Virus record (IMG/VR): IMGVR_UViG_2585427621_000010
Source of the DNA: a virus
Taxonomy: Duplodnaviria > Heunggongvirae > Uroviricota > Caudoviricetes
Strand: one strand, 5' to 3'
Length of the DNA stretch: 37,493 nucleotides
Position 1 is the stretch's first letter; each line of letters starts with the position of its first letter. A program made the position numbers. Positions 12,001-15,000 of this stretch are shown piece after piece.

Positions 12001-15000
12001 GGCAAGTCCTGCCGCTTTCTGCATCAGCATTTTGTCCTCATCCGGCCTCTCCACCTGCTCTTCCTCATGCCGGGGGACAAGCAGACTGAAATCAGAGGGA
12101 TGCATATCCGGATCGCAAAAAAACAGGCTGAGTACAGCGTACGTCAGCCCGGAAAAATGCATATCCAGCTGGGTATCCTGAAAATAATGCGTGCGGTAAA
12201 AACGGTGCCAGTCGGCATATTCGGTGGATGTCATCCCGGCAAGCATGGCGCGCCAGTCGGGTCTCCCCATCTCACGCGCCAGTCTGAGGGCAAAGTTCAG
12301 CTCGCCGTCGAAGACTTTCCCGCAGAAAAATCATCATCAGTCAGCGTGTTATTTTTCGCCACTTCAGTAATATCAGTATCCGGACGAACAGCCCCGCTCA
12401 TCCCGGACAGGCACAACACCACGTCTTCCGCCCGGGCAATGGCATCGGCAGGCCAGGTGGTGAGCACTTCCTGCTCTATCTTCATCACGGCCTCATTCAT
12501 TGACGGTGACTGCGTTTTCTGTGGATGGTTATGCCACAGGGACATCGCCACCAGAAACGCGCCGGTTCTGACGAGATCTTCCACGCTTACCTGCAGGTTG
12601 CCGCTGGATTCTGCCTGTTCTGCACGCCGTTTCAGGAGGGCAAGATGCTCGATACGCTGCAGCGCAGACAATTCGGAAAGCGTGACAGACACACCGTTAT
12701 ATTCAAATTGTTCTGTTTTCAGAAACATGTATGACCTCCGTTTACCCTGCAGCGCCCGCTTCAGTAACGGTGACTTCAGCCACTGCGGCGAACTGACCAT
12801 TTCCGCTCACCACAGGGATCTGCACCTTACCTGTCGCCACGCCGTTTACCGTAATTGTCATATCTTTCACACTAATGGTGGCTTTCGACGGATCGGCGGA
12901 AACCGCTCTGAACGTCTTGTCTGTTGCACTTTCCGGCTCAAAAGAAACCGTCAGGGTGGTTGTTTTCCCTTTTGCCACCGTACCGGATGTCGGCGTCACC
13001 TTAATCGCACTGACCGGCGTAATTTTGCTGCGTTCTTCCGCTACAGAAGGTTTACCCACGTTAGTGACTTTCACCGTGCGGGTGATCACTTCTTTCGCCG
13101 TCACGGCCTTACCGATACTGCTGACCCAGCCACGAAACACATCCACCGTGCCATTCGGAAAACGGATTTTATAGGCCCGGACATCGCCGCTTTCAAACCA
13201 GCCTATAAGCCCTTTCTGGCCTTCCTCTCCCGGTTTCCAGGCCAGCGTAAAACTGGTATCACCTGCAGATTTCTGCCCCTGCCCGGTCGCGGTCCAGTCC
13301 GCGTCTTCATCATCCAGGTAGTTATCATCGTAGGATTCTGCCGTCATCTCGCCCGGCGTCAGATCCTTCACCTTAGCCAGTCGCTGCCAGTCATCGTCTG
13401 ACAACGGGTTTGCATAGGCGTCACCCTGACCGTTATAAACCCACAGGGTGGTACCGGCTCCTTTTACCGGCTCCAGGGGAATTCGTGTTTCGGCTTGACG
13501 TAGCCCGGACGTAACACGCGGGTTTCACCACCGCGATGACGCAGCACTTTTCCTTCAACAACCGGGGAGACATAGGCCGCCACCGGCGTTTTTCCGGTAA
13601 TTTTGTCCAGCATCACCTCTTCGGTATGGAAATTCACCGTACGGCGGAAAAACAGCTCCAGAAACAGCGCACGAAATTTCACTTTTTGTTCGGTATAACC
13701 GAGTAACTGGCGGGTCGTAAACAATCCCATAAATCAGTTCCTTTCATTCAGAAATCAGTCAGGCCACCGCGGTGGCCTGATAACGTGTTACGGCAGCGCC
13801 GCGTGACTCAGGGCACTGCCGGCAAAGGCATTTGCCTTTTTGTGTTCATCCACACTTTCAGGCCAGCGGATTGCCTCCGTCGCAAAGGTCCCCGACTTGT
13901 AATAGGTCAGTACCGTCTCTGTGCCTTCAAGCGGCAGTACCAGTATGCCAACTGCACTACCGGCTTTCTGTCCGTCCCAGACCACCAGTTTCCCGCTGGC
14001 TTCATCCAGCATCAGGGGCGTCAGTGCCGGTGTTGCCGAGGAAATCCCGCTGCTGCCTGTGGCGGTATGAGCCGGATCATTACCGGCAAAAATACGTACT
14101 TCCGCACGCTGTTCAGTGATGTTTTTCGTTACCATATTGTAAAAACCTCCTGTTGATGGTCAGCACTGACTTCATGGCATGGCCATGAGCATTTTCACGT
14201 CCGCATCACCGTCTGCTGACGTCTGTGGCACGCCACCCTGTACCGCAGCCGGTGAATGGTTCGCCATGATGCGTTCAAACAGGGCGGTTGTGGATGCAGA
14301 GACCGGTTCTGCCTTACCTGATCCCGCAGCCAGCACAGCCCGGGCGCTCTCCACAGTCATTCCCGGGCAGGCAGCCAGCTGTTCAGCCTGCGCCTCAGCC
14401 CCTTTTGCCTCATCCAGTGCCATGATCTGATCACGGAGTGAGGGTCCGGCATCCGCCTGCGGTGAAGCAGCCAGGATCGGGCGGGCTTTTTCCACCGTCA
14501 TCTCCGGCATCGCCGCCAGCGTTGCCGCCAGTTGTTCACGACCGTTCGCTTCTTCACACGCCATAATGCGATCGGCTTCACTCTGCGTGGATGCCACCGG
14601 CTGCTGCGGTGCCGCCGCGGCCAGAATCGCCCGGGCCTGTTCAACGCTCATGCCCTGTTGTCCTGCCAGCATCGTGGCAAGCTGTTCACGTCCTTTCGCT
14701 TCCTGGCATGTCAGGATCCCCATCACTCGCTGGTTCTCCTGCGCGGCGGCTTCCGTTGCAGTTAATTGCGGCATAGTGCCTCCTCTGACATTACTGTTCA
14801 GCGCCGTGGCCATCACACTGATGGCATCCGACGCATTGACTAATTCATCCGCCAGCCCGGCATCAATGCCGGACTGACCTTCAAAAACGGCGGCCTCTGT
14901 TCCCGTGACGGCATCAACAGACAGACCGGTAAACATGGCCACTTTTTCGGCAAACATCCGGCGCGCCGCATCAATGCGCTGCTGCATGTTCTGGCGAACC

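Follow-up and report, generated by a model that had tools for sequence, protein, structure and literature searches.

A triplicated scaffold module in the protease-scaffold gene of a defective Escherichia coli O157:H7 prophage corresponds to the Tri boxes of phage 21

In phage lambda, the prohead protease gene C and the scaffold gene Nu3 overlap in frame, and Nu3 is an essential scaffold that is needed for portal incorporation (PMC3224144, PMC10695390). Two-hybrid and literature data indicate E, C, and Nu3 itself as interaction partners of Nu3 (PMC3224144). Nu3 may be degraded by C (PMC3224144, PMC10695390), and the scaffold is removed proteolytically during head maturation (PMC3224144). Here, we describe the homologous protease-scaffold gene in a stretch of 37,493 nucleotides (nt) from a tailed phage (Caudoviricetes; IMG/VR record IMGVR_UViG_2585427621_000010). 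The whole stretch, which we call the window, is a defective phage-21-like prophage of Escherichia coli O157:H7. The scaffold part of its gene contains three diverged copies of a module, and these copies are the Tri1, Tri2, and Tri3 boxes already annotated in phage 21.

The closest described system is gene 5 and gene 6 of phage 21 (head-tail preconnector and scaffold; GenBank records M81255 and OL657228), and the gene in the window is an allele of it. The two share the length of 501 amino acids, the nested start, the ribosome binding site, and three boxes at matching residues. In both phage 21 records, gene 6 is annotated as a nested in-frame coding sequence with its own ribosome_binding_site. 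In M81255, which covers the head operon, gene 6 additionally carries three repeat_region features with the remark “function unknown; putative”. These are the Tri1 box (record positions 5542–5645, residues 324–358), a second box named only Tri box (5682–5792, residues 371–407), and the Tri3 box (5823–5936, residues 418–455). The phage 21 head genes were reportedly described by Smith and Feiss in Gene in 1993. Unlike phage 21, the allele in the window lies in a defective O157:H7 prophage beside a truncated capsid gene, and N230 and L466 are conservative substitutions private to it.

Two more distant systems are also informative. The gpC homologue of the Salmonella phage Gifsy-1 (STM2605) has three modules that match those of the window in order and are one-to-one orthologues of them. 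Its scaffold part is 54% identical to that of the window, and overall it is 66% identical to phage 21 gp5. It differs in its longer C-terminal tail and in its second module, which begins with RIL and not RIM. Lambda, for which we used record NC_001416, has the same gene order (B-C/Nu3-D-E), the S49 domain, the in-frame nested scaffold, and the module motif, and its C protein is 58% identical to phage 21 gp5. However, lambda C has a single module (residues 357–401), which follows a long non-repetitive segment rich in Ser, Thr, and Ala.

The gene and its catalytic domain occupy the following positions in the window.

14172–15677, minus strand: gene 5 / C homologue with a GTG start, coding for 501 amino acids, an S49 prohead protease followed C-terminally by the scaffold region (open reading frame call, Pfam, PHROG, and RefSeq)

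14799–15242, minus strand: Peptidase S49 catalytic domain, residues 146–293 (PF01343, 122 bits against a cut-off of 24.9)

The Pfam Peptidase_S49 match to the 501-residue protein has an E-value of 2.8e-35, and phrog_53 (head maturation protease) matches the protein over its full length (E=1e-227). In E. coli O157:H7 strain TR01, an identical region has the RefSeq protein WP_001254002.1, an “S49 family peptidase”, in the order portal, S49 peptidase, head decoration, and truncated major capsid, and separate gene calls agree with this order. The gene is a prohead protease plus scaffold of the lambda C/Nu3 (phrog_53) type. The preliminary description had named it so, and the S49 domain, the phrog_53 match, and its place between the portal and head-decoration genes all agree with that name. 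The protein shares 98% amino acid identity with that of phage ev017 and differs from that of phage 21 at 10 positions. Over the C-terminal 202 residues, the identity to phage 21 is 97.5%.

Using a profile hidden Markov model (HMM) built from the candidate units, three modules of ~42–45 residues were located in the scaffold part, followed by a tail for which the predicted local distance difference test (pLDDT) score is low.

14604–14738, minus strand: module R1, residues 314–358, the Tri1 box of phage 21 (module HMM i-Evalue 4.7e-25)

14454–14579, minus strand: module R2, residues 367–408, the second Tri box of phage 21 (module HMM i-Evalue 4.1e-27)

14313–14438, minus strand: module R3, residues 414–455, the Tri3 box of phage 21 (module HMM i-Evalue 1.6e-25)

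14175–14312, minus strand: C-terminal tail, residues 456–501, ending in DADVKMLMAMP (z about 0 against the modules; low pLDDT)

The boxes of M81255 map onto the three HMM matches in the window and in phage 21 alike. The same model finds one copy in lambda C and one in phi80. Pairwise BLOSUM62 local alignment scores among the modules are 87–101, compared with 25–27 ± 5 for shuffled partners (z=11–15), and none of 2000 shuffles attains the observed score of a module pair. The scaffold profiles phrog_8399 and phrog_17040 also match in three separate stretches each. The HMM and the shuffle test confirm the earlier reading of three diverged modules against one in lambda; the range on which that reading was based (14268–14729, residues 317–470) takes in all three modules and the beginning of the tail.

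The modules are 46–54% identical to one another, and R1, which is 58% identical to the lambda module, is the lambda-like copy with an MGIL insert. Nearly invariant across the modules are E-A-K-G-R-E, L-A, P-G-M-T, and A-x-x-x-L. At the DNA level, only seeds of ~15 nt recur, with a spacing of ~150 nt. Nucleotide identity between modules is 57–64%, and identity at third codon positions (14–16 of 38) is near saturation. Tandem Repeats Finder, run on 14100–15700, reported no repeat, as expected from this divergence, and the repeat is visible in the protein only. The tail opens with a fourth helix-like F-E-R-I-M motif (ERIM at residues 468–471), and it is conserved among homologues, with F166 and M170 of the 200-residue alignment near-invariant. 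It was considered as a fourth module and rejected, since it has no detectable similarity to the other three.

The three-copy repeat was therefore already known, a verdict that rests on the feature table of M81255. As a discovery it carries little weight, because the repeat has been on record since that early-1990s entry. What the present analysis adds is the recognition of the module as a conserved core of Nu3-type scaffolds, its predicted fold as a three-helix bundle, the derived nature of the triplication and the purifying selection on it, and the existence of variants with two and four copies. We consider it highly probable that R1–R3, carried by an allele of phage 21 gene 5/6 with its Tri boxes and nested scaffold, are paralogues in tandem, each a copy of the one folded unit that is conserved in lambda-Nu3-type scaffolds, and that they have a role in capsid interaction or self-interaction.

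The predicted structures are consistent with a folded unit. In an AlphaFold2 model of the 200-residue scaffold, the modules have pLDDT values of 75–80, while the linkers and the tail fall below about 60–65. The predicted template modelling (pTM) score of the whole scaffold is only 0.27, which suggests no fixed arrangement among the modules, similar to beads on a string. A single module modelled with its flanks reaches a pLDDT of 86.7 and a pTM of 0.67 and has three helices. On this prediction, every module would fold on its own into a three-helix bundle of ~40 residues, and flexible linkers rich in Pro, Ala, and Gln would connect the bundles. Foldseek comparison of the 200-residue model with the PDB returned no match at E<=0.001, and a sequence search of the PDB with the 200-residue scaffold gave only a chance match (E=1.3).

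By analogy with lambda, a role for this region can be proposed. The region would be made twice, once as a C-terminal extension of the protease (gp5/C) and once as a separate scaffold of 200 residues starting at M302, with the latter probably far more abundant, as for lambda Nu3. The module is most likely the interaction unit of the scaffold, which would bind the major capsid protein, associate with itself, or both during procapsid assembly. It is the best candidate for such contacts because no other folded element of the scaffold part is widely conserved. The scaffold extension may also carry the protease inside the procapsid, to be degraded later. With three modules, a scaffold of the 21 type would be trivalent and one of the lambda type monovalent. 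The binding partner of the module and the effect of valency are both inferred.

Several points weigh against this reading. Lambda gpNu3 is described as intrinsically disordered in the title of a 2011 paper by Medina et al., which fits poorly with a confidently folded bundle. Lambda, whose head has T=7 symmetry, assembles the same head with one copy of the module, and natural in-frame variants with two and four copies exist, so that three copies are not obligatory. In addition, we found no published experiment on the Tri boxes.

Small helical units of this kind may have parallels in other systems. In the P22 scaffold gp8, a C-terminal helical unit contacts the coat protein. This coat-binding domain, a helix-turn-helix, is likewise a small helical unit near the scaffold C-terminus and is a plausible functional analogue of the module. 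Other near systems are tandem three-helix-bundle binding modules, such as the staphylococcal protein A domains, the GA albumin-binding modules, and the UBA/CUE domains. The LAxxPGMTxxxAxxIL pattern could also be read as a helix-hairpin-helix (HhH) motif, in which case the modules would bind DNA. The HhH profile PF00633 matches one module only, with 13.1 bits against a gathering cut-off of 24 (E=0.093), and as the threshold is not reached, we regard DNA binding by this motif as barely credible.

The proposed two-form expression depends on an internal start. The scaffold would be translated from a nested frame, preceded by a strong Shine-Dalgarno (SD) site.

14172–14774, minus strand: nested in-frame scaffold open reading frame (gp6 / Nu3 analogue), 200 amino acids, starting at M302 with MPQLTATE (homologous coding sequence in the phage 21 records)

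14779–14786, minus strand: SD site AGAGGAGG of the nested scaffold gene (gene 6 / Nu3 analogue), −12.0 kcal/mol, 4 nt before the ATG of M302

Anti-SD pairing was scored upstream of each in-frame ATG, GTG, and TTG in the gene, with the following results for the starts of interest.

M302: −12.0 kcal/mol, AGAGGAGG, the strongest site of the whole gene, upstream of all three modules

V1: −9.1 kcal/mol, the start of the full-length gene

M319: −7.4 kcal/mol, opens R1, with GGAG 12 nt away

M372: −3.0 kcal/mol, opens R2

M419: −2.4 kcal/mol, opens R3

M471: +0.4 kcal/mol, opens the tail

From the pairing and from the gene 6 start annotated in M81255 and OL657228, which is homologous to M302, we infer that M302 is the internal start. 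The corresponding site in lambda points the same way. At lambda M309 (record position 5342), the positional homologue of M302, the SD site CAGGAGGG has a pairing energy of −10.8 kcal/mol, compared with −6.9 kcal/mol for the weaker site at the nu3 start given in GenBank (5132, M239). The annotated lambda Nu3 start may thus lie too far upstream.

The preliminary description had proposed that the R/Q-[IV]-M which introduces each copy could serve as an internal start, and in that case each would open a separate product, giving a ladder of ever shorter scaffolds. There is indeed an in-frame ATG at the beginning of all three modules and of the tail, M319 has its GGAG upstream, and the C/Nu3 family is annotated with in-frame nested initiation. 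However, M372, M419, and M471 are essentially without SD pairing, and the only strong internal SD site precedes M302, the annotated gene 6 start. The methionine is also often replaced by leucine in orthologous modules, as in R2 of Gifsy-1 (RIL), R3 of P0029 (SIL), R2 of P0057 (KIL), R2 of P0067 (QIL), and R3 of P0076 (QLL). Such frequent replacement is incompatible with a conserved start codon. A ladder of products is accordingly a highly improbable outcome, and the proposal finds no support; R/Q-[IV]-[ML] is a conserved hydrophobic position in the first helix of the module, not a start codon. Scaffold translation from M302 remains our preferred reading.

Two TTGYN6TTGY patterns are present in the scaffold gene, at 14756–14769 and 14522–14535 on the plus strand, and their homologues in phage 21 are annotated as CII binding sites. 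We do not adopt this annotation inside gene 6, as the pattern occurs at chance frequency in the window (6 observed, 7.5 expected).

The three-module arrangement is present in functional phages. For the complete genome published in 2022, virions of phage 21 were grown and purified (PMC9119081). Genes with three modules and 90–98% identity in the scaffold are found in phages ev017, 4A7, D2, 1W, 3W, Lambda_4C10, and the PhiR5/12/57/63 phages, and the capsid genes are complete in those checked. The Salmonella phage Gifsy-1, with its three modules, likewise counts among the viable carriers. Over the 200-residue scaffold, the amino acid identity to phage 21, ev017, 4A7, and D2 is 97.5–98%. Phage D2 shows a mosaic junction in gene C (locus L008, 2092–3609), where ~110 residues identical to lambda at the beginning give way to 21-type sequence in the rest of the protein, the triple scaffold included. 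The phages 4A7, 1W, and 3W likely share this junction, to judge from scaffolds that match that of D2. Co-segregation of the triple scaffold with a 21-type capsid in mosaic phages was considered and set aside, because D2 is 21-like except for those first ~110 residues of C and is uninformative on this point.

The copy number was surveyed in cluster representatives at 50% identity and in loci of a one-genome-per-species collection (GTDB). A search for scaffold homologues, which returned mostly truncated fragments, was used for variants only.

149 closest 50%-identity representatives: one module in 98, three in P0093, two in the window’s own shortened representative, and none detected in the rest

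34 GTDB loci, one copy: 28 species

34 GTDB loci, three copies: E. coli, Shigella flexneri, E. albertii, Trabulsiella guamensis, and Providencia alcalifaciens

34 GTDB loci, two copies: a stand-alone open reading frame of Bradyrhizobium

The 28 single-copy species extend from Enterobacter and Kluyvera to Vibrio, Shewanella, and alphaproteobacteria. Throughout Proteobacteria, Nu3-type scaffolds have this module as their only conserved core. A single copy is the norm, and three copies are a derived state. The preliminary description held that a three-copy structure universal in functional relatives would be unremarkable; the structure is present in the functional close relatives but is not universal in the family. 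So far, the triplication has been seen in genomes or phages of Escherichia/Shigella, Salmonella, Trabulsiella, and Providencia. The two-module frame of Bradyrhizobium sp. SSUT77 (locus L043, 2507–3094) covers 196 residues between stop codons and may have arisen by a duplication of its own, in a scaffold that is not fused to the protease.

Within E. coli, the copy number varies further. Four modules are present in P0027 (48 member sequences), where modules 2–4 are 80–88% identical to one another, which suggests a more recent amplification or gene conversion. Of the clean two-module variants P0020 and P0021, one has a repeat-to-repeat fusion and the other a precise loss of R2, and P0009, P0011, and P0016 have in-frame deletions within R2. 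The scaffold region is covered to at least 80% in about 1,860 of 5,426 complete E. coli genomes, at a median of 3 places per carrying genome, and the gene is among the commonest prophage genes in the species.

The triplication itself is old. R1, R2, and R3 are 76%, 80%, and 60% identical to the modules at the same positions in Gifsy-1, and in proteins of both the 21 type and the Gifsy type, R2 and R3 share a 3-residue deletion and R1 keeps its MGIL insert. Since each module is nearer to its Gifsy-1 counterpart than to its neighbours, the triplication is older than the separation of the Escherichia lineage from that of Salmonella. This agrees with the earlier view of an old expansion and not a recent slip.

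It is tempting to see the copy number (1 in the lambda type, 2, 3 in the 21/Gifsy type, and 4 in some E. coli prophages) as a tunable valency, in which the number of modules sets how many capsid subunits or scaffold partners are bridged per chain and has co-evolved with the 21-type major capsid protein. We put this forward only tentatively and think it rather doubtful. If it were true, the Tri boxes, listed as of unknown function for 30 years, would be a natural experiment in multivalent scaffold design. The natural copy-number variants and the conserved module in any case ease the design of deletion or swap experiments on scaffold valency.

Another explanation is that the two extra modules are tolerated padding, a neutral expansion of the spacer in a flexible and transient protein, without a specific function. 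Lambda, phi80, and most relatives function with one copy, and the two-copy, four-copy (P0027), and within-module deletion variants listed above all occur in E. coli sequences. On the other hand, Escherichia and Salmonella phages have kept R1, R2, and R3 orthologous position by position, and three-copy genes are also present in the genomes of Trabulsiella and Providencia. The clean two-copy variants are rare, with 1–3 member sequences. The motif residues E-A-x-G-R/A-E, P-G/E-M-T, and A-R/K-x-x-L are retained in all three modules. The ratio of non-synonymous to synonymous substitution rates (dN/dS) measured against PhiR5_1 is also low in each of them (0.15 in R1, 0.32 in R2, and 0.16 in R3; 0.12 in the tail). 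In view of this retention, neutral padding is an unlikely explanation, and we keep to the reading of the modules as copies of a conserved interaction unit.

The synonymous divergence (dS) from PhiR5_1 (locus L009) is uneven across the modules, at 0.89 in R3 but 0.13 in R1 and 0.07 in R2. This excess in R3 indicates a recombination boundary within the scaffold, between R2 and R3.

As the capsid gene is truncated, the gene had been suggested to be free to drift. In this scenario, C/Nu3 would be a decaying pseudogene and the divergence of the repeats would reflect lost constraint. The truncation itself is borne out by the 88-residue stub, by the RefSeq annotation, and by a break in the phage 21 alignment, and the prophage has a ~2.5-kb deletion from E to V, a Nu1 gene cut by ISEc8, and IS1203 insertions. 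In the index of the assembly collection, the exact 501-residue allele occurs in 10,658 blocks, and it stands beside the 88-residue E stub in 10 of 10 places among the matches listed, so that it appears to be linked to the E–V deletion. This linkage and the two private substitutions would fit a gene in decay.

The gene sequence itself shows no such decay. The reading frame is intact, without frameshift or stop. Over the 142 module codons, the comparison with the viable phage ev017 gives 2 synonymous and 0 non-synonymous differences, so the module region is protein-identical. The dN/dS of the whole gene against phage 21 is 0.30, similar to the values of 0.22 and 0.23 obtained between viable phages, the latter for phage 21 and PhiR5_1. 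Eight of the 10 differences from phage 21/ev017 occur in other functional alleles, which leaves N230 and L466 as the private ones. Viable phages show the same divergence between modules, which is therefore older than the deletion. A drifting pseudogene is very unlikely on these grounds, and this part of the preliminary description finds no support. The module region is under purifying selection, with no detectable decay in the window copy. In the window prophage, the gene is an intact passenger of a head module that is dead because E is truncated, and the prophage cannot build its own head.

The extent of the damage follows from comparison with phage 21. The head genes of the window (13480–19292, 5.8 kb) align with phage 21 positions 791–6603 at 96% nucleotide identity. 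The alignment breaks at phage 21 position 6603 and resumes at 9148, which corresponds to a deletion of ~2.5 kb (6604–9147) that joins capsid gene E to tail gene V and removes the remainder of E, FI, FII, Z, U, and the start of V.

13464–13730, minus strand: major capsid gene E, cut short after its first 88 codons (annotated in RefSeq as “major capsid protein, incomplete, missing C-terminus”, and the break in the phage 21 alignment)

The junction of the deletion lies at 13464–13490 of the window (context 12742–13730). The tail gene V is given in RefSeq as a protein of 246 amino acids that starts at 13482 with an ATT codon. The deleted E–V arrangement, with its E stub, is found at two separate loci per O157:H7 genome. 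The deletion of head genes, together with the ISEc8 and IS1203 insertions, makes the window prophage defective.

Other features of the prophage are recorded here for completeness. The prophage adjoins hyaAB and a tRNA-Ser gene. ISEc8, of the IS66 family, lies at ~19347–21951 and truncates the small terminase gene (Nu1), and a copy of IS1203 follows at ~23125–24338. In the gene of the large terminase subunit, two compensating 1-nt indels relative to phage 21 (18988–18994) change LLGVEAY to LLGGGGY. The frame of this gene (642 codons) is open in the window, while RefSeq flags the TR01 copy as frameshifted. The lysis genes are on the strand opposite to the head genes, which implies a rearrangement. 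A sodC moron (Cu/Zn superoxide dismutase; 6223–6750, plus strand) is inserted between the tail genes J and I, on the strand opposite to them.

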